A DNA stretch of 53,176 bases from a virus (lineage: Duplodnaviria; Heunggongvirae; Uroviricota; Caudoviricetes): IMG/VR virus record IMGVR_UViG_2737471835_000006; one strand, written 5' to 3'. Below, one piece after another: positions 28,260 to 53,003 of the stretch. Every line of letters starts with the position of its first letter. Position 1 is the first letter of the stretch. The translations under genes were made by a program, and so were the position numbers. The notes beneath the pieces were generated by a model, which was given only the letters and a program-made list of their open reading frames with translations, was not told the origin of the DNA and ran no database searches.

Positions 28260-28579
28260 AGCTTATTACCTACCTGTGAACCTGTTTGCTGCATGAAAAA
28301 CAATATAATAAAGCGTTATTGAAGACTATGATCCAAGTAAATTTAATCAAATACGTTTATAACGTATTTGCCTAAACAACTTCCAACGTATGATCCGCTT
28401 CTCGCTCTCAGCAGACCTTTATCTGCAGGTGCTTGTCTGCTGTGTTCCAGAAGCAGATATTATTATATAACTCTTTAACCCATGTATGACAAAATATTCT
28501 TGGAGCTTATTAAAACTTCATACGTCTAAATCACCTCTTCATTAGTGAATCAATAATTGTATAGTTAAAATGTAACACT

Positions 28580-29245
28580 TTATTTTTTATGATTAACTTG
28601 CTTTGCTAAAGAGCTATAAATCATATCAACCAAAACATATTTTTCGCATTCCCAAGGTTCACTAATAGATGGGTTTACTAAGTCTGGCTTCCCCCCCATT
28701 AGTGTATGAACATGCGAATAAATACCTATTCTTTCTGCGAGCTGCATTATTTTTATTTGATGTTCTGGTGGGAGCATTTTGTTTTTAAACCATGTTGTAA
28801 ATATATGCTTGGTAAGTTCCTTAGTACAAACAAACCATTCACCTTGACGTCTTTCGTTGCTAAATTTTTCATGAAGATAGTTTTCTTTTTCTGAACCACC
28901 TGGTTCCAAAGCGTGTAATATTAATTGACCAAATGCACCTGTCTGCAGGTTAGACAACCTTTTTAGCACATTATTGGAACGCCCTATTTTCACATAAAGT
29001 CCCGAGTAAGGGTTATTTTTATCTGAAGAACCGGCCCAAGTATCAGGCACTTGTAAAATATAATAAATACTACTTACTTTCCCACTCGATACATTATTTG
29101 CCCAAATCTGCCATTCTTCCATCCAGCTTTTTGCATCTTCTCTCGTGTCAAAGGCATGACTTGTATAGTAAAATTCACCAGTATCCAAGAACATATCGAA
29201 AACATATTTGCCATTCTCTATAATTCTTAAGTTGTCGGCTTTCAT
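28580..29245 (-). CDS. T5orf172 / GIY-YIG-superfamily domain protein
   Basis: 221 aa; central GLYVKIGRSNNVLKRLSNLQTG ... ENYLHEKFSNERRQGEWF matches the T5orf172 (Mug113-like) signature; AT-rich gene with large AT-rich upstream region. Confidence 0.55.
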   Translation of the reverse strand: MKADNLRIIENGKYVFDMFLDTGEFYYTSHAFDTREDAKSWMEEWQIWANNVSSGKVSSIYYILQVPDTWAGSSDKNNPYSGLYVKIGRSNNVLKRLSNLQTGAFGQLILHALEPGGSEKENYLHEKFSNERRQGEWFVCTKELTKHIFTTWFKNKMLPPEHQIKIMQLAERIGIYSHVHTLMGGKPDLVNPSISEPWECEKYVLVDMIYSSLAKQVNHKK

Positions 29246-29449
29246 GGAAGTTTCTCACAAAGTTACAGGAATATATAAAAACTTTACTACGCTTAGTATA
29301 TATTACCACCTGATTATGTATTATTTGATTTACACAACTTATTGCTAGTAATAACGGTTTTGATGTAATCTTCTCATCCCAAACTAACCTTCAAAATAGA
29401 TTTAATCTAAATTATATCAAAATATGCTCTCAGTTAAGATGGCTTATTT

Positions 29450-29647
29450 TTAATCAGTTAGAGGATCAACCTGATTTTCTCTAATAAGATTTCGTAACGC
29501 AGTACGAGCAGCCGCGACTTCTGTCATTCCATTTAGAACCACGCTGGAATGCCCTCCTCTAACCCCAAAGACTGTGACCATATCCTCTTCACGGAAGTAT
29601 TCTGCTTCATACTGAAGGCCATCTTTCTCTACGCGAATATATGACAT
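29450..29647 (-). CDS. Hypothetical small protein
   Basis: 65 aa ORF upstream of the T5orf172 gene on the same strand. Confidence 0.3.
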   Translation of the reverse strand: MSYIRVEKDGLQYEAEYFREEDMVTVFGVRGGHSSVVLNGMTEVAAARTALRNLIRENQVDPLTD

Positions 29648-30273
29648 AACAACCTCATTTTATTATCTTTTGTTTGAATGATATATCCACAAAATAATTT
29701 AAGCAATCTCGCCCAAGACGGTACGCCAAGCTTGCCTTGTAAGTATACTGTAAATATTCCGATAAAACTAATCATTCGCTTTTAGCGCATGTCCAAAAAA
29801 TGGTTCAGGTATCCTATCGTGCCAATATTCGCTCCTCACTCATAGCGGCTTTCAGGCAAGTTAACTAGTCCGCTCGGTGCCATATAGAGCCATGGTTATT
29901 AACAGCAGGGAATAATTCCACACTGAAATTAAATGTCTACCTTTTACAGTAGAAATAGTTCCTCCAGGACACTATCCATTGCCGGGCACAATCACTCGGG
30001 GTATAACGATATAAAATATGTTCATGATAGTGCAGGTTCGTATATTAAGTTCAGCAGCGAAAACATGCCTTACAGGTTTCCGGTTTTGGGAGCGTCGTTA
30101 CAGGATCCTGTGCATACCGTTCCCATCTGTTGAATTAAAGGTTTCACAGCCTTTGCCGATATCACCTTTTACCTTGCCTGTGATGCGTTCAGTGCTCAGC
30201 GTTGTTTACTGTAGCTCTCGGAACTGATTACAGACCGCGTCTTAAAAACCAATCCTTACTCTAAAGGGAATTC

Positions 30274-31197
30274 ATGAGATTAAAATACTCAGTACTCTTA
30301 CTCGCCATTGCCCTTACAGGCTGTGATAACAAAAAAGATGAGATCGGTTGTTCTTCGGAAATGACCCAATCAGCTCTCATGGATTTATTAAAAAAATCTG
30401 CTTATGAAGGACTCTCTGAACAGGTCGATAAATACCCTGATGTCACTAATCAGACCAAACGAAGCACACTGGACAAGATCAAACTAGCCGTCTCTGAAAT
30501 CTCCACAACATCAAGTGACACGGGCAGCACAATGAAAACTTGTGAAGGGACCGTGACGATGACTCTACCTGCGAACGAGTACGTCCAGCTTTCTGATGCT
30601 TACAGAAAGAATTTTAATCGTAATCTCGATAAGCAAATGGAAAATCTGTTTTTGGAGAACAACGCAAACGCCTTTTCAAAACGTATCACCTACACCGTGC
30701 AGGCGACCGACGATCAGAAAAACGTTTTTGTAAAAACCTCTTCTGATAATCCGATATCAGTGGGCGCCGCTTTACTGACATCGCTTTCCATTATCAACCC
30801 GATCGTTGAGCAGCAGAAAATCCAGCAGGCTAAGGATGCCCAACAGAGTCAAATTGAAGCGGAACAACAGGTGCAACTCAGGGCACAGGAACAGGCCAGG
30901 TATGAGGCGGAGAAGCAAATAGAGAGGCAGGCACAACTTCAGCCGCAAAAAGCTGAAAGCCTTGATCAGTCCCGAATGGCATTTGCGAATGCTGACTCTG
31001 ATTTGAATACAGTCTGGGGCAGGTTAACGCCGGCGAAGAAAAAAGAGTTGCTGCCTTCTCAGCGTCAGTGGATCAAAACTAAGGATGCTATGTGCGGTAA
31101 AGTTTCAATGCAGGGAACAGATGCTGAAGTCAAGAAAATGGTCGACTGCCAGACGCAAATGACCCTTTCAAGAATCGCTTTCCTCAGAAACCAATAA
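30274..31197 (+). CDS. Lipoprotein with C-terminal DUF1311 (LprI-like) domain
   Basis: 307 aa; signal peptide and lipobox LTGC; Gln-rich coiled-coil middle; C-terminal NTVWGRLTPAKKKELLPSQRQWIKTKDAMC pattern. Confidence 0.5.
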   Translation: MRLKYSVLLLAIALTGCDNKKDEIGCSSEMTQSALMDLLKKSAYEGLSEQVDKYPDVTNQTKRSTLDKIKLAVSEISTTSSDTGSTMKTCEGTVTMTLPANEYVQLSDAYRKNFNRNLDKQMENLFLENNANAFSKRITYTVQATDDQKNVFVKTSSDNPISVGAALLTSLSIINPIVEQQKIQQAKDAQQSQIEAEQQVQLRAQEQARYEAEKQIERQAQLQPQKAESLDQSRMAFANADSDLNTVWGRLTPAKKKELLPSQRQWIKTKDAMCGKVSMQGTDAEVKKMVDCQTQMTLSRIAFLRNQ

Positions 31198-42673: not shown

Positions 42674-42854
42674 ACTGACCGGCTACCAGTTCCCGTCAAA
42701 ACAATGCGGCGCCCTGACCCGTGCCGGGATCTCTTATGTAAAACGCCGCGATGGGCGACCTCGCGTCACATGGACGCATGTAAACGCTGCGCTGTCCGGA
42801 GCAAGGTCCGTGCAGATTGCCGAAGAAGAACAACCAAATTTTGATGCAATCTGA
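42639..42854 (+). CDS. Putative excisionase / recombination directionality factor
   Basis: 71 aa immediately upstream of the integrase with overlapping stop/start. Confidence 0.4.
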   Translation: MNDLLNDEELVELTGYQFPSKQCGALTRAGISYVKRRDGRPRVTWTHVNAALSGARSVQIAEEEQPNFDAI

Positions 42855-43882
42855 TGAGCAGAACACGAAAAAGCGCGGAAGATAATAAGCTGCCACCCCG
42901 CGTTTATAAAAACAAATACAGCTATTATTTCAAACCAACGCCCCGAGAGTGTATTACGCTGGGTAAAATTAATGATCTGTCAATTGCTCAGGTATGGGTG
43001 AAATACGAAGAGATCCTGAATGATGCTATTGATGTCATGACGTTCAGTAAACTCTGGAACAAATTTCTCAACAGCACCTACTATCTGGAACTCGGTCAGC
43101 GTACACAAAAGGATTATCTGCAGCACCAGAAGAAATTACTCGCCGCGTTCGGGAAAATGAAAGCCGACAACATAAAACCTGCTCACGTGCGGCTGTATAT
43201 GGACAAGCGGGGGCTGAAAAGCAAAACACAGGCGAACCATGAAAAAGCCAGTATGTCGCGAGTATTCCGCTGGGGATACGAACGCGGATACGTAAAAGGG
43301 AATCCATGCCAGGGCGTCAGTAAATTTTCCCTCAAGCCCCGCGACTACTATTTCACGGACGAGGAATATATCGCAATTTATCAGGAGGCATCTCCCGTTT
43401 TACAGTGCGCGATGGAGATCGCCTATCTGTGCGCCACGCGGATCGGCGATATACGAAAGCTGACGTGGGATCAGGTTATGAGTAAGGGTTTGTTTATCCA
43501 ACAGGGTAAGACTGGCAAAAAGCAGATCAAACAGTATTCAGAGCGACTGACGTTCGCACTTGAGCAGGCGAAATCGTTGGGAGGACAACATTTCGTGGTC
43601 TGTAACAAATATGGCGGGCAATACAGTTATACCGGATTTAACGATATCTGGCGTAAAGCCAGGGCGGCGGCAAGTGAAAAGCTGGGCTACCCGATTACGG
43701 GAACGTTTCACGATTTAAAAGCGAAGGGGATCTCAGACTACGACGGAAGCAGTAAAGAAAAGCAGTTGTTCTCTGGTCACAAAACTGAGGCGCAGGTGCT
43801 GACGTATGATCGCAAACCTGCAGTTTCTCCGACTCTGGATATTCCGGTGCTGGATGTCACAGTTCTGAGCAGAAACCCGTGA
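42854..43882 (+). CDS. Tyrosine site-specific integrase
   Basis: 342 aa; phage-integrase architecture with C-terminal catalytic region (HDLKAKGISDY ... LFSGHK ... LTYDRK); adjacent to a tRNA-derived att core. Confidence 0.8.
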   Translation: MSRTRKSAEDNKLPPRVYKNKYSYYFKPTPRECITLGKINDLSIAQVWVKYEEILNDAIDVMTFSKLWNKFLNSTYYLELGQRTQKDYLQHQKKLLAAFGKMKADNIKPAHVRLYMDKRGLKSKTQANHEKASMSRVFRWGYERGYVKGNPCQGVSKFSLKPRDYYFTDEEYIAIYQEASPVLQCAMEIAYLCATRIGDIRKLTWDQVMSKGLFIQQGKTGKKQIKQYSERLTFALEQAKSLGGQHFVVCNKYGGQYSYTGFNDIWRKARAAASEKLGYPITGTFHDLKAKGISDYDGSSKEKQLFSGHKTEAQVLTYDRKPAVSPTLDIPVLDVTVLSRNP

Positions 43883-43967: not shown

Positions 43968-44037
43968 TGGCGGAGAGAGGGGGATTTGAACCCCCGGTAG
44001 AGTTGCCCCTACTCCGGTTTTCGAGACCGGCCCGTTC
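43968..44037 (-). tRNA. tRNA-Ser (anticodon CGA) 3' fragment; att core copy, not a complete gene
   Basis: Minus strand reads anticodon arm CCGGT-CTCGAAA-ACCGG, long variable arm, T-arm GGGGG-TTCAAAT-CCCCC, acceptor 3' strand TCTCTCC and CCA; no complementary 5' acceptor strand exists upstream. Confidence 0.6.
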
Positions 44038-44163: not shown

Positions 44164-45266
44164 ATGTTCATTAATATACACCACACAAATAATTCACAGA
44201 TATTGCAAAATGCTCAGGTCAAAAATAAAATAAAACGTGTTGATCGTCTGCTCGGTAATGAATCTCTTCATCACGACATCCCCCTGATTTTCATAAACAT
44301 TATTTCCATGCTGACGAGCAAGCTGTCACTGTGTGTCATCGCCGTTGACTGGAGTGGATACCCCTCTCAGGAGTATCACGTACTCCGCGCCAGCCTGATT
44401 TGCGATGGACGTTCGATTCCATTGCTGAGTTGGATAGTTCCTTCGGAAAAACAGCAAAATGCTAAGATACAGCAAGCCTTTCTTAATACTCTTTCCGAAG
44501 CGGTAAACCCAAAAGCAAGGGTAATCATCGTCGCGGATGCAGGGTTTCAGAATGCCTGGTTTCGGCACGTAAAATCACTCGGCTCGGATTTTATTGGCCG
44601 GATACGAGGCAATAAACAACTACATCTGGCAAGAAAAGGGGAATGCTGGTTCAGGCGTCAGGAATTACAGGCCAGTAACAAACCTGAATATCTGGGGCCG
44701 GGGACGCTTTCCCGGGCGGAATACGCCCGTTGCGATGGTCATTTTTATTTGCACAAAAAAGAGCCGAAAGGCCGGAGAAATAAACGTTCGCGTTGTGGTA
44801 TAGCCAGACCATCACAGATAAAAGATGCCAGGTCGGCGGCAAAAGAACCATGGTTAATATTCAGCAGCACAGATGACTTTAAACCGCGAGAAATCATGAA
44901 GTTATACAGCCACCGAATGCAGATTGAGCAAAACTTCAGGGATGAAAAAAGTGAGCGTTTTGGGTTCGGTCTGCGAGCCAGTTGCAGCTGTTCGGCAGGA
45001 AGAATGCTGGTACTGAGCCTGCTGGCAACACTGAGCACAATAGTGCTGTGGCTTATTGGCTATCACGCTGAAAATCAAGGAGATATCAGGCCAACAGCAT
45101 TAAAACGCAGCGGGTAATCTCGCATCTGACGTTAGCGGAGAATGTCTTACGACACTCCCCGCTAATTTTAAAACGAACGGTGCTAAGCACCATTCTTAAT
45201 CACCTCGCCAGAACCTACCAGAATATGGTGTTGGTTTATTAGCGCTGATTTATGGGGATCCCTCAG
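44164..45266 (+). mobile_element. IS4-family (IS10-like) insertion sequence remnant with disrupted transposase
   Basis: 317-aa ORF 44164-45117 collinear with the IS10 transposase core (KRVDRLLGN, VIIVADAGF, SAAKEPWL, YSHRMQIEQNFRDEKS) but short at both ends; terminal repeat CTGAGGGATCCCCATAAAT (reverse strand) at 45248-45266; no left end found. Confidence 0.6.
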
Positions 45267-45407: not shown

Positions 45408-47111
45408 CTATGTGGGGTCGACCAACCAACCTTCAATATAATGGAAAGGAACTGGGTATCGGTAACAGCGACACGCTGTAAGAACTAATGGTGCATACCC
45501 TTTAATCACGGCTGACATTCTCTTAAACGAATCTGCATTATTACACTCTTGTGCAATGTGTTTTATTGCTAATTCGCCATTCATCGGGAAATCTGTTGAC
45601 GCTGAGCCATGTGTATCTGAGTTCGAGTACATATATTGTTCACTGTATTGATTTGGATACCAATACTGTAGCGTGCTATGTGCCAGTTTTTCAGTAGCAA
45701 ACTCTTCCAAATCTTTGCTTAAAGAGTCTAATTTATACAGAGAGCAAAAGACTGTTAACAGAGGATATAAAATACTAGCCTCAGTAACCTTATTCTTATA
45801 AATCTTGTCAGTTTTATCTTTATTCCTATGTTCAATCAGTTTTTCGTAAGTTTCATATATAATTGGATACATTCCATTGATCTCAAAAGAGAATATACAT
45901 CTATTAACCATTTCCGATAGCCAACTTTTCACAAACTCATCGAGCTCTGAATTATTTGAGAGTAACATTAGAGCTAACCCAATATCTATCGCCTGAGAAT
46001 CTTTTTGCGGTGAGAGCAGAACCGGATTGTTGATAACTAATAGACGAATTGACTTTGTTATTTTCCTGAGATGTATACATAACCTTTCTTGTTCTTTGCT
46101 CTCTCCATCAATTGGTGGGTTCTCTGCATAATTCTTAGACAACAAATCTAAAATCCAGTGTCCCTTGACGGATAAACGACCTAGCACATCAAAAAGCTTA
46201 AAGTTTATATCAATAGAGCACGGGGAGCGAACAGCATGAGATAAAGCATATTTAAATTCAACATACGGAATTAAACAACGTTCAATATAGCAATCAGTAA
46301 TTTGCTGGTAGGTATCTAAAATGCTATCAAATGACTTTGAAGGCCTATTCTTTCCGGTATAGTGTTCTTTTACTTTATCCCAAGCTAACAGCAATGCTCG
46401 TTCTGATGAAAGATATGCTGATTCTAAATTCCCGCCATCACGACACCAAGCAAATAAAACCCATAGACAAACATTTATCCGTGTTATCGATGAGGCAACA
46501 GAATCTGAATCTGTAGCGTTTTTCAGAACATCATTAATCAATAGAAAGAAGTAATTGCTAGAAGTCTCTGGTTCTTCAAGTAAAGCCAAAGATTTTCTTA
46601 ATAAGGTCTGGCTGGAACTAGGTAGTAATTCTTCTTTCAACAAATGCTGCTGGATAAGCTCAGATATTTTATCACCATTCCACTCTTCAAAAGAAATATT
46701 ACCTTGAGTATTTCGTGTTTCATACCCAGACACCTCTTGCCTGATCCCTGAGCTAACATCTCCACCAAAGCATAAGCAAATAACTATTTTTTTATCTCTA
46801 TGTTCGGGCGGTAAACGACTTGGTATAAATGAATCTTGAATCTCATCTAACGAAGGTCTAAGAGCCTGATCTGCGTTTCCATTCCATGTCTCACGAGTAA
46901 GGTTTCCAGATTTAACAGAAAATAAATAGACTTTTGTCTCTTCACCATTTATTTGGCCTACAGCCGCTATATCTACTCCATACTCTTTCACTCCACGGGT
47001 TGGCGAAATAAACACATTCATCCCCATACTGCTCAACAAATCTGGCAGTATAGCATCTAACTCTGCTCGTTCTTTTAATGAAGCCAAGTATTGCTTAAGA
47101 ATTAATTTCAT
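45408..47111 (-). CDS. Uncharacterised large protein with Mrr-type restriction-endonuclease-like N-terminal domain
   Basis: ATG start at 47111 lies 1 nt after the upstream gene's stop (the track's 47126 start is a GTG). N-terminal SPTRGVKEYGVDIAAV ... KVYLFSVKSG resembles the Mrr catalytic-domain pattern; rest helical; AT-rich. Confidence 0.5.
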   Translation of the reverse strand: MKLILKQYLASLKERAELDAILPDLLSSMGMNVFISPTRGVKEYGVDIAAVGQINGEETKVYLFSVKSGNLTRETWNGNADQALRPSLDEIQDSFIPSRLPPEHRDKKIVICLCFGGDVSSGIRQEVSGYETRNTQGNISFEEWNGDKISELIQQHLLKEELLPSSSQTLLRKSLALLEEPETSSNYFFLLINDVLKNATDSDSVASSITRINVCLWVLFAWCRDGGNLESAYLSSERALLLAWDKVKEHYTGKNRPSKSFDSILDTYQQITDCYIERCLIPYVEFKYALSHAVRSPCSIDINFKLFDVLGRLSVKGHWILDLLSKNYAENPPIDGESKEQERLCIHLRKITKSIRLLVINNPVLLSPQKDSQAIDIGLALMLLSNNSELDEFVKSWLSEMVNRCIFSFEINGMYPIIYETYEKLIEHRNKDKTDKIYKNKVTEASILYPLLTVFCSLYKLDSLSKDLEEFATEKLAHSTLQYWYPNQYSEQYMYSNSDTHGSASTDFPMNGELAIKHIAQECNNADSFKRMSAVIKGYAPLVLTACRCYRYPVPFHYIEGWLVDPT

Positions 47112-47112
47112 T

Positions 47113-48837
47113 TTACATTCTCTCACTACGACATGTTATCAAAAAATAATCTAGTAACACGGGATCTAAAGCATCCAACCTTGGCATTTCAGTAGAGTGA
47201 GAAAAAGTCTGCATTTGCATTTCCTGTCGTATGGATTCCCCATCACCTTGATGTATATAATAAATAGAACTGTTCCCGTATAATAAAATTTTAGGTTTCG
47301 AGAACATTCTAAATAAAGAAAATTCCGATGCTTCTTCGATAGCTTTTTGCATACTTCTGTCAACATTTTTCCAATAAATGCTTAAATTTTCGCTGGGTGC
47401 TTTTAGTTCATTAAGTTCAGATACTTTTTCAATACCAGTCTGATGGAGTTTATACTTTGCAAGCAATCGCTCACATAGATGTTCCTGGATGCCGCTATCA
47501 ATGCATGATTGAAAGAAGCGTTTAAGTTCTCCAGGGTAACTTAAAAGCAAAGGGAAGTACAAAATACCCTCAAGCTTTTCAATTGTGTTTTCCGAAGCCA
47601 CATCTGCAATAGAAAGAATAAATTTTGCAGTTTCAACTGGCCGTGTAAATAACCATCCTATAGCCTTACGACTAATAAAAACTTGCTTTATATCATTATC
47701 CAATAAATCCAATTCCGCCTTTAGTTCAATTTCCTCACCCGTAGCATCATGAAGTAAATCTAAAATACCATGACAAAATTGTTTTTCTCCACCCAGAAGC
47801 CATTTTGTAATGATGTGATTAAGTAGTTCTTGATGCTTACTTATTAATTCATTAGAAAAATAGTCCAGCGATTTAAATGTAACACCTGCTATTAAAGTTG
47901 ACTCCAATAATTCCACAGCAAGCGAGTACTTACTTTTCTCAGCTAACATGACCAATATATAATCAATATTACCTATAATACCTTTATGATCACAGGACAC
48001 ATTAGTTAATTTCTTAAGCATGATATACAGAATACTATCTGGAAGAATCTCCGATTGAAATGCAACAATACTTGAAATTATCTGAAGAACCTCTGTAGAT
48101 TCTCTCTTAACAAAAGCAATTAAAAACTCTTCTATTTGCGGCCAGTAAGATGGAAACCTTTTCCCAAATTGGAGTGCAGACATCAATATCGACGCACAAC
48201 AATCATTATCACTCTCGCTAACACCATTGTTTCTAATTTGCTCCCAAATTAAGTTAGCCTTTGTCTCATCAATATCTAACTGTCCCAAAGTAAAATAGCC
48301 TTGATTTCTGATCATTGCATTTCTATTAGAAATGAGTCTTTCTGTCATCTGGATAGCTGTTATGACACTATCTGCGTCGTAAGCAAGGAGCGAGCTTGAA
48401 AGAAAAGGGGCATATGCATTCAAATCACTTTGTGCAAGGATAAACTCAACACTATCTCTAGAGCGAGATGCTTTCACACTACAGTAACGCTCATAGGCTT
48501 TATAGATTGTACCAATAGTTGCCCCTCTCCCGACCTGTTGCACCAATTGAACCAGACAATGTAGAACATCCTCAATTCTTGCATCTATCAAAGGTAGCGC
48601 TTCTTCAAACGTTTGTAGAATAGTAAAAAAATTACTACCGTAGGATTTTTTATCAATACCTTTTACCATTTTGAGGATATCAATCACACCAGTGTTGTGG
48701 AGTTCAGCTAGCGCTAATGCTAAACTTCTTTCTTCGGTATGTAATTCTTGAGCATATAAATCACAAACTAGAGCAAGCAGATCTTCTGCCGTTTCACTTG
48801 CATTCAGCAACTGGCCTCTTGTTTCTTCTAACGACAT
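47113..48837 (-). CDS. Uncharacterised large alpha-helical protein, first gene of a two-gene operon
   Basis: Start placed at ATG 48837 (MSLEETRGQ) with GAGG about 9 nt upstream; the track's 48852 start is a GTG. No P-loop or other catalytic motif seen; AT-rich. Confidence 0.5.
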   Translation of the reverse strand: MSLEETRGQLLNASETAEDLLALVCDLYAQELHTEERSLALALAELHNTGVIDILKMVKGIDKKSYGSNFFTILQTFEEALPLIDARIEDVLHCLVQLVQQVGRGATIGTIYKAYERYCSVKASRSRDSVEFILAQSDLNAYAPFLSSSLLAYDADSVITAIQMTERLISNRNAMIRNQGYFTLGQLDIDETKANLIWEQIRNNGVSESDNDCCASILMSALQFGKRFPSYWPQIEEFLIAFVKRESTEVLQIISSIVAFQSEILPDSILYIMLKKLTNVSCDHKGIIGNIDYILVMLAEKSKYSLAVELLESTLIAGVTFKSLDYFSNELISKHQELLNHIITKWLLGGEKQFCHGILDLLHDATGEEIELKAELDLLDNDIKQVFISRKAIGWLFTRPVETAKFILSIADVASENTIEKLEGILYFPLLLSYPGELKRFFQSCIDSGIQEHLCERLLAKYKLHQTGIEKVSELNELKAPSENLSIYWKNVDRSMQKAIEEASEFSLFRMFSKPKILLYGNSSIYYIHQGDGESIRQEMQMQTFSHSTEMPRLDALDPVLLDYFLITCRSERM

Positions 48838-49086
48838 ATTCCTTAACCTCACAAAACTGACATTAGATCAATCCGTACTTTGTAAGATTAGAAGAAACAG
48901 GTCAATTGTAACCTCCCCATTTCATACATCTTGATGTTCGCAACTTCCGCCACAGTTCTCGAATCAATGCCATACTGTCATGAAGTTTTGGTAGAAAGAT
49001 ATTTAGGTTCACTCATACCAGAATACGGCAAAATTGATAACGACTATAAATCATTCAATACTCGCACTATCAGAAGTTCACCAGCC

Positions 49087-49131
49087 AACCGCGGCACGTC
49101 CTGCATAGGACGTGTCTGCGGTTTTTCTTTT
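49087..49131 (+). terminator. Strong plus-strand rho-independent terminator with no obvious plus-strand gene
   Basis: Extended stem around CACGTCC-TGCATA-GGACGTG followed by TTTTTCTTTTT. Confidence 0.5.
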
Positions 49132-49135
49132 TCGC

Positions 49136-49720
49136 TTACATTGTGTCTGGTTCTTCCGGCCACTCAATATCAGGTGCAGTTGTTGTATTAACACGGTTCA
49201 GCAACACCCGATACTTCTTCCAGGCTTCCAGCAACGAGGTTTCTTCCTCCGTTGCAATTTCCAGATCTGCAGCATCCTGAAGCGGCGCAATATGCTCACT
49301 GGCTACCTGCATCAGGCTGTTTTTTGTTTCTTCCGCCTCCCGGATCCGGAACAGTTTTTCTGCTTCTGCATCTTTCACCCAGGCTGTGCCGTTCCACTTC
49401 TGATATTCCCCTCCCGGCGACAACCAGGTAACATTTTCCGGTAACGGACCGAGTTCAGAAATAAATAACGCGTCGCCGGAAGCCACGTCATAAACCGTTT
49501 TACCCCGATGGTCTTCAACGAGATGCCACGATGCCTCATCACTGTTGAAAACAGCCACAAAGCCAGCAGGAATATCTGGTGGTGCAATATCGGTACTGTT
49601 TGCTGGCAGACCTGTATGAGGCGGAATATATGCGTCACCTTCACCAATAAATTCATTAGTCCCGACCAGCAGATTATAAATTTTTATGGTCCGTGGTTGT
49701 TCACTCATTCTGAATGCCAT
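49136..49720 (-). CDS. tfa: Tail fiber assembly protein, lambda Tfa
   Basis: 194 aa, near-identical over its length to lambda Tfa as recalled ([18 protein letters not shown] ... [51 protein letters not shown]). Confidence 0.85.
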
Positions 49721-52700
49721 TATGCAAGCCTCACAATATAGTTAAATGCGATGTTTTTGACGGTGTTTTCCGCATTACCAGCAGCGTTAACGGTGATGGT
49801 GTGTCCATGTGAACCAATCGCAACGGAGTGCGTATGAGCACCAATACCGACAGTATGCGCGTGTGCACCTGCAGATGCTGCTGTGCCGGACAGTGAGTGG
49901 CTATGATTACCATCTGTACTGGTATTAGCTAACCACCCCGTAGACATACCTACTGAGCCTTGTACACCCCAGGTATTTTGACCTGAGCTTGTATAACCAT
50001 ATTGATAAGTATCTTTAAAAACACTGGGGTTAAATCGACGGCCATCTCTATGGCTGTGATTACCAGCTGCATTCGTGCTGCCACTTAAACTATGAGTATG
50101 CGCACCAGTGTTATTCGTGGATTTAGTGCCGTAATCAAACGATGATGTGGTTTTCGTACCCAAATCCGTACTGGATACGCTGGCGCTGTGGGTGTGCGAT
50201 TTAATGCCGTCCTGTTCCTGAGACAATACGGCACGACCACTGGCGGGCTTGCCCTTAATCGTCCAGCCACGCATATCAGGGATCACGCCTGACGGATAAG
50301 CGGCTGCAAGTTTCGGGTAAGCAGATTTGTCAAAAGTCTGCCCCTGCATCAGGGCATAACCAGACGGAACGGTATCTGATGGCCACGGGATTGGTGCGCC
50401 GACTGGGTAGCTTTCTGGTGGAAGATTTTTCGAGGTATAAACTTCTGCCCAGTCTTCCTCAAAACCATAACCGTCTCTTGAAGAACGGTAGAACAGACCA
50501 CCATTTCTGTAATGCGCCTTCATCTGCAGGGTCCGGCAACTTCCGACTCCGGTATAGAAGTTAACCAGAATATAGCTGTCGCCAGAGCGGGTGACATTGT
50601 AAGCGCCTGATTCGGCATTCCATGGAACGCCCCCATCCGCATCGGCATATGTATCCGTTGCCCTTCTGGCAAAAGCAGCCACATGCGCGGCGGTTAAAGT
50701 GATATCAGTAGAACCATCAAATGGAACACCGGATATTTTTCTTGCAGTCTGAAGTTTTGTAGCAGTTGCAGCATTACCAGTGGTGTTCTGATTACCCGTA
50801 GTGTTTACACCTGGAAGGTTAATATTTGCAGAACCGTCGAAAACAACTCCACCGATAGATCTTGCCGTCTGCAATTTCGTGGCTGTACTTGCATTACCAT
50901 TCAATGAACCAGTTAATCCACCTGTAACAGACAACGGACCTGAAACTGTTCCTCCGGTTGTTGGCAGTGCTCCAATATCTGATGGTGTAGGTTTCTGATG
51001 TGAGCTATACATCGTATAAACAACACCATAGGTAACGCTGGAAGGCTTACTCACTGAATATGTTGGCGAGGTATAAACAGAAACTGACGCATTTGCAGTA
51101 CAATCCCAATGGATATTTACACTCGTCGCATAATTGCCAATCTCAACGTAAATATCATATGTATCGCCGGATGTGTTGATCCAGGCGAAATTCGTTAATC
51201 CGACGGCTGTACGCTTCCACAAAGCCCCGGTAATTCCTTTGGGGTTTCCATTGCCTGCTCGTAGAACCAGTTCTGAAATGCCTGCCTGATGTGGGGAGCC
51301 GACGTTGTAACCAGCGCCACCAATCAATGCGATGTAAACGATGGAACTCGCTTGTGGCATGGTAACCGTAGCCAGTTTGAACCACCCAGCCCCGCCAGAG
51401 AAAGACATCGTTACTGAATTTAAAGTACCAATATCTTTCGGCGTTAATGTTATATCCGCAGTCAGTGCTTTTCCGTTAACTTTTCGGTTAGATGGCACCC
51501 TGCTATTCGCATTGTCATTGGCTGCTTTAACTGCTTTTGGCGTTGCGGCCAGCGATTCACTGGTGCTATCAACAGCACTGCTAAGTTTCACAACACCTTT
51601 AGTTGTAAGGCTTGCGTCTTCCATCGCAACTGCACCGGCAATCTCTTCAGCACGATCAGCAGCAGTTTCCGCACGGGTCGCAGCGGATTCAGCAGCAGTT
51701 TTGCTCTGAGATGCTGCCGTCGCACTGCCTGCCGCCTCTGTTGCTTTCGTGGATGCCGTCGCGGCGCTGCCCTTCGCTGCTGACGCCTGTCTGGTCGCCT
51801 CATCTTTTGAAGCAGACGCAGATGATGCCGATGACGCCGCCGAACTGGCGGACGATGCGGCAGCCGTTTTTGAGGATTCTGCGCTGGTTTCCGACGCTTT
51901 CGCGTTCGTCTCGGATGTCTTCGCTGCGGAAGCAGACCTCGCTGCTGCGCTGGCCTGTACAGCGGCTTCGCCAGCCTTCGTTGTGGCTGTTGAAGCGGAC
52001 GATGCAGCACTTTCTGCCGATTTTCCGGCGGCGGTGGCACTGGCTGAGGCCTGCCCGGCACTTGTTGACGCGGCACTGGCAGACGACGCAGCCGCTGTTT
52101 TTGAGCCTGCCGCAGCTGAGGCACTCTGTCCCGCTGCCGTTTCAGAAGCCTTGGCGTTCGTCTCGGACGTTTTTGCCGCCTTCGCAGAATTTGCTGTCGC
52201 CGTTGCCGAGGAAGCTGCGCTGCTGGCGCTCGAGGCTGCGCTCGTTTCTGATGATTTTGCCGCCTCTTTTGAAGCCGACGCATCCCGGGCTGAGGTGGCA
52301 GCTTCTGACGCTTTCGTGGTCGCGGTGGATGCTGAAGTGGCTGCTGATTGTTGTGACGCTGCCGCATTCGTTTCTGACGTTTTTGCCGCAGCGGCACTGG
52401 TGGCCGCCGCGCTTTTTGAGGACTCTGCAGCGGCAGCACTTTTTGATGCTTCAGTGGCCTTTGCTGATGCCGTTCCTGCGCTGGAAGACGCTGACTGAGC
52501 CGACGAAGCGGCCTGTCCGGCTGACGTGCTGGCTGCGCGTGCTGAGCCTGCAGCATCAGTCGCATGGGTTGCCGCCTCACGGGCTGATGTGCTGGCATCG
52601 CCGGCTGACTTCTTCGCGGCTGCCGTGTTCTGTGCCACCGCGGACGCGTTACGCGCCACCTCTTCCACCATCAGTTCAAAACGGCGCAGTGCCTCAGGAC

Positions 52701-52995
52701 GGGCATCATCCTCCGTCATGGCACCGAGAAAATCATTCAGCGTACCGGGTCGGGAATCTTCATACACGGTGATGGTCCCGGCATGTGACGGCGGGAATCC
52801 TTCCACCAACAGAATAACGCTGTACTGACCGTACTCAACGTCCATGCTGTAACGCCCGGCTTCATCCGGATTTTCTGAGGCCAGCGTGTTCACCACCACC
52901 GTGGTGCTGTTACGTTTTGCTTTCAGCTGGATTGTGCAGTTCTGTACCGGTTTTCCTGTGCCGTCTTTCAGTACACCTGAAATCTTTACTGCCAT
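49720..52995 (-). CDS. stf: Side tail fiber protein, lambda Stf family (long form)
   Basis: [27 protein letters not shown]-terminus, Ala/Ser-rich repeats, and His/Gly-rich C-terminal region ending [11 protein letters not shown] as in lambda Stf; ATG start placed 6 nt inside the track ORF (first codon there is GTG). Confidence 0.9.
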
Positions 52996-53003
52996 ATTCA
53001 CCC

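Follow-up and report, generated by a model that had tools for sequence, protein, structure and literature searches.

We analyzed a two-gene, AT-rich cassette carried by a Caudoviricetes virus (IMG/VR record IMGVR_UViG_2737471835_000006), whose complete 53,176-nucleotide sequence is hereafter called the window. As judged from its sequence, the pair is a member of the Olokun anti-phage family as catalogued and can already be named with standard defence models. The locus as a whole is probably best explained as a prophage-carried Olokun of the common subtype, which combines a ~575-aa OloA with a ~567-aa OloB bearing an N-terminal nuclease, and we hold with still greater confidence that the pair is a defence cassette of the Olokun family with a nuclease as its effector. 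Anti-phage defence best accounts for the PADLOC matches, the catalogued contigs, the nuclease fold, the defence and mobile genes found as neighbours, the position as prophage cargo, and the patchy rarity of the cassette. The initial annotation of this DNA had also favored anti-phage defence, which the catalogue match and the context uphold. It had considered the pair undescribed and assignable to no named system, a view overturned by the full-length OloA and OloB matches and four catalogued contigs.

Assignment of the gene pair to Olokun

The PADLOC comparison consisted of the OloA and OloB hidden Markov models (HMMs) alone, run on the window proteins. The upstream protein matched OloA (PDLC03925) with an expect value (E) of 2.9e-110, its residues 9-573 aligning with positions 10-593 of the 596-position profile, and the downstream protein matched OloB (PDLC03926) with an E of 3.2e-207 (residues 1-562 on positions 1-553 of 556). 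The sub-domains of both proteins matched the expected segments of these profiles. Relatives of the pair were also found on four Olokun contigs (loci L034, L040, L060, and L022) of Table S15 of Millman et al. (2022, bioRxiv 10.1101/2022.05.11.491447), namely those of Psychrobacter phenylpyruvicus (G561DRAFT_scaffold00043.43), Desulfobacter curvatus (B147DRAFT_scaffold_2.3), Shewanella waksmanii (L865DRAFT_scaffold00004.4), and Enterobacter sp. Bisph1 (contig 48/148). These contigs and the PADLOC matches indicate that the pair belongs to the catalogued family; homology to its verified exemplar was not found, as described below.

Gene structure and composition of the cassette

The open reading frames place two genes on the minus strand of the window, oloA-like first and oloB-like second (Table 1). 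The oloA-like frame can start at ATG 48837 or at an alternative GTG at 48852 and ends with TAA at 47115-47113. The start MSLEET... is shared by 52 homologues, which supports the ATG over the GTG. The oloB-like frame runs from ATG at 47111 to a stop codon at 45410-45408, and the junction reads ...AGA ATG TAA a ATG AAA..., that is, the oloA stop, 1 nt, and the oloB ATG. In relatives, the OloA frame overlaps oloB by 4 or 17 nt. The consensus OloA C terminus is ...ERMKNExNS, and the window copy has TAA at a Lys codon of its relatives. This early stop removes six residues (KNExNS), giving OloA 574 aa in the E. coli lineage against the 576-580 aa typical elsewhere, so the 1-nt gap is a local derivative of the overlap.

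The GC content was 0.364 over positions 45408-48852 and 0.486 in the remainder of the window. All 429 windows of the same length elsewhere exceeded the value of the cassette (minimum 0.390, mean 0.485, sd 0.039), and GC at third codon positions was 0.29-0.31 for the pair versus 0.44-0.45 for the tail-fibre genes tfa and stf. Chance does not account for open frames of ~570 codons in DNA of 36% GC whose full-length homologues number in the hundreds and span phyla. The frames, the junction, and the composition confirm the claim of the initial annotation that these are two real, AT-rich, coupled genes.

OloB-like protein

Residues 1-160 of OloB were modeled with high confidence as a PD-(D/E)xK fold whose structural neighbours are restriction enzymes. 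The candidate catalytic residues E14, D47, and K67 were invariant across 76 homologues down to 26% identity. The model, its neighbours, and the invariance of the three residues agree with the earlier description of an N-terminal PD-(D/E)xK-like segment in which Ser replaces an acidic residue. In regards to the "Mrr-type" likeness also proposed there, the fold and the motif stood and membership of the Pfam family did not. Pfam Mrr_cat (PF04471) gave no match to the window OloB at E <= 1, and one of 38 homologous N-terminal domains reached an E of 0.002; the resemblance to Mrr is confined to the fold.

The remainder of the protein, residues 165-567, gave a confident all-helical model for which a structure search returned no informative neighbour. 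When OloB, or a profile built from its N-terminal domain, was compared with PDB sequences, the matches were at chance level and included no solved Olokun structure.

OloA-like protein

The AlphaFold2 (AF2) model of OloA had a predicted local distance difference test (pLDDT) score of 82 overall and mostly >85 over residues 1-470, a region that is entirely helical and forms a HEAT/ARM-like alpha-solenoid. Foldseek against the PDB returned PP2A PR65, importins, CAND1, and the AP1 adaptor (E 2e-4 to 5e-3), and the OloA profile weakly matched the HEAT protein YibA (1oyz; E 3.6e-4). The solenoid model and these matches give the protein the Adaptin_N/HEAT-like character expected of an Olokun OloA; the Pfam Adaptin_N model itself did not match it. 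No catalytic motif was found in OloA, and a Walker A motif was absent from both OloA and OloB. A helical upstream protein devoid of a recognizable catalytic motif, as the initial annotation had read it, is therefore what the model, the Foldseek neighbours, and the motif search describe. PADLOC and Foldseek had been suggested there as checks; the former matched both proteins end to end, and the latter yielded a HEAT-like solenoid for OloA and restriction-enzyme neighbours for OloB.

The C-terminal tail of OloA (residues 471-574) is rich in invariant residues and contains the most conserved block of the alignment (residues 541-570; column identity 0.85), and its pLDDT as a monomer was <50. Conservation together with poor modeling of the chain alone is expected when a segment acquires its fold against a partner, and the tail is probably an interface with OloB, a contact role suggested by the alignment and the model.

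Distribution, linkage, and conservation of the family

OloB-like proteins numbered 1668 in a word-indexed search and 734 as clusters at 50% identity (E <= 1e-3), and nearly all were full length (550-600 aa). OloA homologues numbered 141, with identities of 49-73% beyond the E. coli cluster. A scan of species-representative genomes gave 180 relatives in Proteobacteria, Firmicutes, Chloroflexi, Planctomycetes, Nitrospirae, Cyanobacteria, Bacteroidales, and one archaeal metagenome-assembled genome (MAG). The scan used a closer alignment (A4), and 80 loci were retrieved. Three of these were cut by contig ends; in all 77 loci with room for it, oloA lay directly upstream of oloB on the same strand, abutting or overlapping it.

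The two proteins differ in their rates of change. In each of 70 comparable loci, OloB was the better conserved of the two, by 18 points on average, and the median identities to the window proteins in these loci were 42% for OloB versus 26% for OloA. The corresponding values in Vibrio were ~82% and ~57%. No conserved third gene was detected among 133 immediate neighbours, which represented 139 Pfam families, each in <=5 members. The recurrent neighbours were subunits of type I restriction-modification systems, OLD/GajA-like ATPases, Fic, Mrr, Schlafen-AlbA2, and integrases.

The cassette was present in 14 of 5426 complete E. coli genomes, always in the chromosome and annotated as hypothetical, and no copy was found in the phage database. 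In E. coli strain PSS-15 (NZ_AP027709.1, hit H14), the window-type pair is interrupted by the insertion sequence (IS) IS2.

Proposed function

An Olokun designated PfOlokun has been studied biochemically. It co-purifies as a ~278 kDa complex of OloA and OloB (2:2) whose nuclease domains are adjacent and degrades the DNA of T7, SECphi17, and SPO1, whereas plasmid is only nicked and E. coli DNA is spared (Ragucci et al., bioRxiv 10.1101/2025.07.10.664194). The activity requires the nuclease active site and needed 1 uM protein, and active-site mutations in PfOloB disrupt the complex (Ragucci et al.).

Building on the fold, the three invariant residues, the gene pairing, the evolutionary asymmetry, and the genomic context of the window pair, we infer complex formation, a DNA target, and a sensor role as follows. 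OloB would be the effector, in which a FokI/Mrr-like PD-(D/E)xK domain (E14, D47, K67) is fused to a helical domain of 400 residues. OloA, a solenoid with a conserved tail and no enzymatic motif, would act as a partner, regulator, or specificity subunit. The coupled genes would supply the two proteins in a fixed, equimolar ratio, and these would assemble into a hetero-oligomer, of ~260 kDa if 2:2 as in PfOlokun, that sets two FokI-like nuclease domains side by side. Such a complex would nick or cut incoming phage DNA and spare that of the host, and the lysogen, and hence the prophage, would be shielded from superinfection. Since OloA evolves faster than OloB, it would most likely set the recognition target or the licensing of the nuclease, without ATP. 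The initial annotation had proposed a sensor together with a nuclease effector; the effector half is backed by the fold of OloB, and the faster evolution of OloA fits the other half. That OloA is the sensor nevertheless stays an inference, to which we assign somewhat less than an even prospect.

We put the chances at about even that the pair cleaves phage DNA directly and does not work through abortive infection. The main functional alternative is of the latter kind and resembles a toxin-antitoxin module: OloA would restrain OloB until a phage cue or the loss of OloA frees the nuclease to attack host and phage DNA, killing the cell. That the genes are tightly coupled 1:1 and strictly co-occur is reminiscent of such logic, the disruption of the PfOlokun complex by nuclease-site mutations links the active-site region to partner contact, and the need for 1 uM PfOlokun suggests a restrained ground state. 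The slow evolution of OloB is compatible with either mode, and we consider abortive action unlikely.

Two layouts under one name, and the weighing of alternatives

Several observations weigh against the reading of the pair as an Olokun defence system with an active nuclease. The Olokun marked "Verified" is that of E. coli 3-020-07_S4_C3 (SG196) (Millman et al. 2022, Tables S2 and S15). This mark applies to another layout, and the defence activity of the window subtype may thus never have been tested. Full-length proteins of the verified type were recovered from a related genome. They comprise an OloA of 857 aa and an OloB of 490 aa, the latter with an invariant, canonical D396...E405-x-K407 motif near its C terminus, in a segment that also matches LmuA. 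The nuclease is thus at opposite ends of the two OloB proteins (residues 1-160 in the window and the C terminus in the verified type), so the domain order is not shared. No homology between the window proteins and the verified type was detected (BLASTP E > 0.3, hhalign probability 0.1-0.2%, HMM cross-search E > 1). PADLOC profile positions ~1-163 scored both the window nuclease domain and the helical N terminus of the verified OloB, which suggests, at the level of sequence profiles, that PDLC03925 and PDLC03926 behave as composites of a mixed seed alignment. The PfOlokun study places an "N-terminal helical domain" in OloB, the opposite of the window protein (Ragucci et al.), and the 278 kDa of PfOlokun lies between the predicted 2:2 masses of the window pair (259.6 kDa) and the verified type (306 kDa). 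Within OloB, position 65, which is usually D or E in such nucleases, is Ser, Thr, or Val across the family; with the canonical middle acidic residue absent, catalysis would rest on E14 as a substitute. Pfam, NCBIfam, and PHROGs gave nothing significant for OloA or OloB. Finally, a consensus scan of the minus strand ahead of oloA gave no convincing promoter; the promoter of the cassette presumably lies within 48838-49135.

The verified-type OloB occurred in none of the 80 window-type loci, and the window lacks the DNA that was cloned for the verified Olokun. In E. coli strain ET826 (locus L002 7070-8050), the verified-type oloA is split by the IS5-like element ISKpn26.

These differences raise the alternative that the name Olokun is a classification artefact, merging two unrelated, convergent two-gene systems that each combine a helical-repeat protein with a PD-(D/E)xK nuclease, in which case the defence role of the window pair is borrowed from an unrelated system. 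The dissimilarity between the window family (A2, A1) and the verified type (A3) argues for it, as do the opposite positions of the nuclease and the scoring of both types by the same PADLOC positions, which is possible only with a mixed seed alignment. The family table of Millman et al. itself, however, lists the window subtype, and the two layouts agree in gene order, in the type of partner, and in the class of effector. The defence and mobile neighbours, the prophage cargo position, and the patchy spread support defence for the window subtype independently of the verified one, and PfOlokun may itself be of the window subtype, its 278 kDa being nearer to 260 than to 306. On this evidence we regard the artefact as a serious contender that falls short of even odds. 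We are more doubtful of a related claim, that Olokun comprises two evolutionarily unrelated systems of which the window holds the much commoner, an experimentally untested one that lacks an ATPase, in which a novel helical domain bears the FokI-like N-terminal nuclease and the partner is a fast-evolving HEAT solenoid. No fewer than 734 sequence clusters make up the commoner layout, and they range from Proteobacteria to Firmicutes, Chloroflexi, Planctomycetes, and an archaeal MAG.

A role outside host defence appears very improbable. The cassette would then serve the prophage, in competition with mobile elements or plasmids or in the degradation of host DNA during lytic growth, or would be selfish cargo with no phenotype. 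It lies on the same strand as, and just downstream of, late tail-fibre genes, so late read-through transcription is possible; the negative promoter scan and the nicking of plasmid DNA by PfOlokun point the same way. Most of the 180 relatives, however, occur in non-phage chromosomal contexts with varying neighbours, so that a role in the phage life cycle cannot explain the family, and both the related prophages and the phage database lack the cassette.

A prophage-carried Olokun of the common subtype is therefore the reading that we retain. The Olokun label spans two layouts with no detectable homology, and the layout verified at discovery is not the common one; as far as sequence comparison can tell, the common layout may be unrelated to the discovery exemplar and perhaps itself untested. 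The subtype matters to users of Olokun annotations and to the study of nuclease licensing by a HEAT-repeat partner that has no ATPase.

Phage background and neighbouring features

The coordinates of the cassette and its flanks are summarized in Table 1.

Table 1. Features of the oloA-oloB cassette and its surroundings in the window.
Feature	Position	Strand	Remarks
oloA-like gene	47113..48837, including stop codon	(-)	574 aa, 65.2 kDa, pI 5.0
OloA residues 1-470, HEAT/ARM-like alpha-solenoid	47428..48837	(-)	AF2 model
OloA residues 471-574, conserved C-terminal tail	47116..47427	(-)	Alignment and AF2
Gene junction TAA-a-ATG, translational coupling	47109..47115	(-)	Read from the sequence
oloB-like gene	45408..47111, including stop codon	(-)	567 aa, 64.6 kDa
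OloB residues 1-160, PD-(D/E)xK nuclease domain	46632..47111	(-)	Predicted fold and motif
OloB E14, candidate catalytic residue	47070-47072	(-)	
OloB D47, candidate catalytic residue	46971-46973	(-)	
OloB Ser65, at the usual acidic position	46917-46919	(-)	
OloB K67, candidate catalytic residue	46911-46913	(-)	
OloB residues 165-567, all-helical domain	45411..46619	(-)	Confident model
Upstream intergenic region	48838..49135	(-)	Purine-rich Shine-Dalgarno-like GAGGTTAAGG at 48841-48850
tfa, Caudo_TAP tail-fibre assembly gene	49136-49720		Upstream flank of cassette
stf, tail-fibre gene	49720-53001		Upstream flank of cassette
IS4-family DDE transposase remnant	44164..45117	(+)	Pfam DDE_Tnp_1, E 1.2e-17; outside the system
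Attachment (att) core, 3' end of tRNA-Ser (serU), 50 nt	43968..44017	(-)	86 bp past integrase stop
Tyrosine integrase	42854-43882		Paired with DUF4224 gene; downstream flank

The structural region of the phage (window positions 1-25000, with tail sheath, portal, and terminase) is ~92% identical to the E. coli myovirus vB_EcoM-705R4. The tail sheath and the resemblance to E. coli myoviruses rule out a lambda-like window, despite the stf/tfa-type fibre genes. The likening of the cassette position to the b region of lambda in the initial annotation thus holds as a positional analogy and not for the phage itself, which is myovirus-like.

A single copy of the tRNA-Ser fragment, and no complete tRNA, was found in the window. 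The fragment occurs twice in the chromosome of E. coli E-ge-1 (locus L001 10669-10718 and 24654-24703), where the copies flank a prophage remnant, one next to yodB and the other inside a tRNA-Ser gene. The single copy here and the two flanking copies there identify the fragment as the att core, and this pattern indicates that the window shows the attP configuration (excised or circularly permuted) of a phage that integrates at serU.

In lambdoid prophages sharing ~100 bp after tfa, the interval between tfa and att is <=0.5 kb. The near-empty slot of these related prophages indicates that the 3.4-kb pair is inserted cargo, in agreement with its earlier interpretation as separately acquired. The segment at ~49030-49126 is retained downstream of tfa in cassette-free prophages and gives the boundary of the cargo. 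A 10-bp GC-rich hairpin at 49093-49116 lies 20 nt past the tfa stop, carries a T-run (plus strand) and, toward tfa, an A-run, and is likely a bidirectional terminator marking this boundary. The IS4 remnant is located between the att core and oloB, and the copy in the chromosome carries the annotation of an IS4 transposase that is frameshifted and partial; the element may have delivered the cassette or may just have landed beside it. The window thus offers a naturally occurring case of a temperate phage of E. coli that bears an Olokun cassette in the tail-fibre-to-att slot, together with a natural host and a cassette that fits in a construct of ~3.8 kb.

Positions 51500-52800 of stf form a long Ala/Ser/Thr-rich stretch of low complexity (GC 0.58-0.63), over which the long overlapping open reading frames in other frames or on the opposite strand are almost certainly artefacts. 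A second AT-rich islet (window positions 28501-30000, GC 0.36) holds a protein with a MUG113/T5orf172 (GIY-YIG-like) domain and, beside its gene, a lipoprotein-like frame with an LprI (lysozyme inhibitor) domain; the frames at this islet are 28580-29245 on the minus strand and 30274-31197 on the plus strand. The islet is possibly another cargo region.

Comparison with known systems

In regards to individual nucleases, the N-terminal domain of OloB resembles the cleavage domains of FokI and BspD6I and the Mrr/MspJI-type enzymes. The DNA-recognition or methylation-reading domains of those enzymes are missing from OloB, and its second acidic residue is replaced by Ser, Thr, or Val. In Hachiman, Gabija, AbpAB, and Shedu/PD-T4-8, too, a nuclease of the PD-(D/E)xK or a related kind works with an accessory subunit, and the two form an obligate complex. 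The accessory subunits of these systems are helicases or ATPases, whereas OloA carries no nucleoside triphosphatase (NTPase) motif, so any licensing step cannot be ATP-driven.

The verified Olokun of SG196 has the same gene order as the window pair and likewise combines a helical-repeat partner with a PD-(D/E)xK effector, lacks an NTPase, and lies on a mobile island by an integrase. It differs in the sizes of OloA (857 versus 574 aa) and OloB (490 versus 567 aa) and in having a C-terminal D...ExK nuclease in place of the N-terminal E...D...SxK of the window. PfOlokun serves here as a working model, with its 2:2 complex, paired nucleases, selective degradation of some phage DNAs, and nicking of plasmid. 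The closest correspondence is with Olokun as catalogued: the oloA-oloB order of two genes, the Adaptin_N/HEAT-like OloA, the predicted-nuclease OloB, and the end-to-end PADLOC matches all agree, with no difference at the level of the catalogue, and the window instance is distinguished by being cargo of an E. coli prophage and by an OloA that is six residues shorter.

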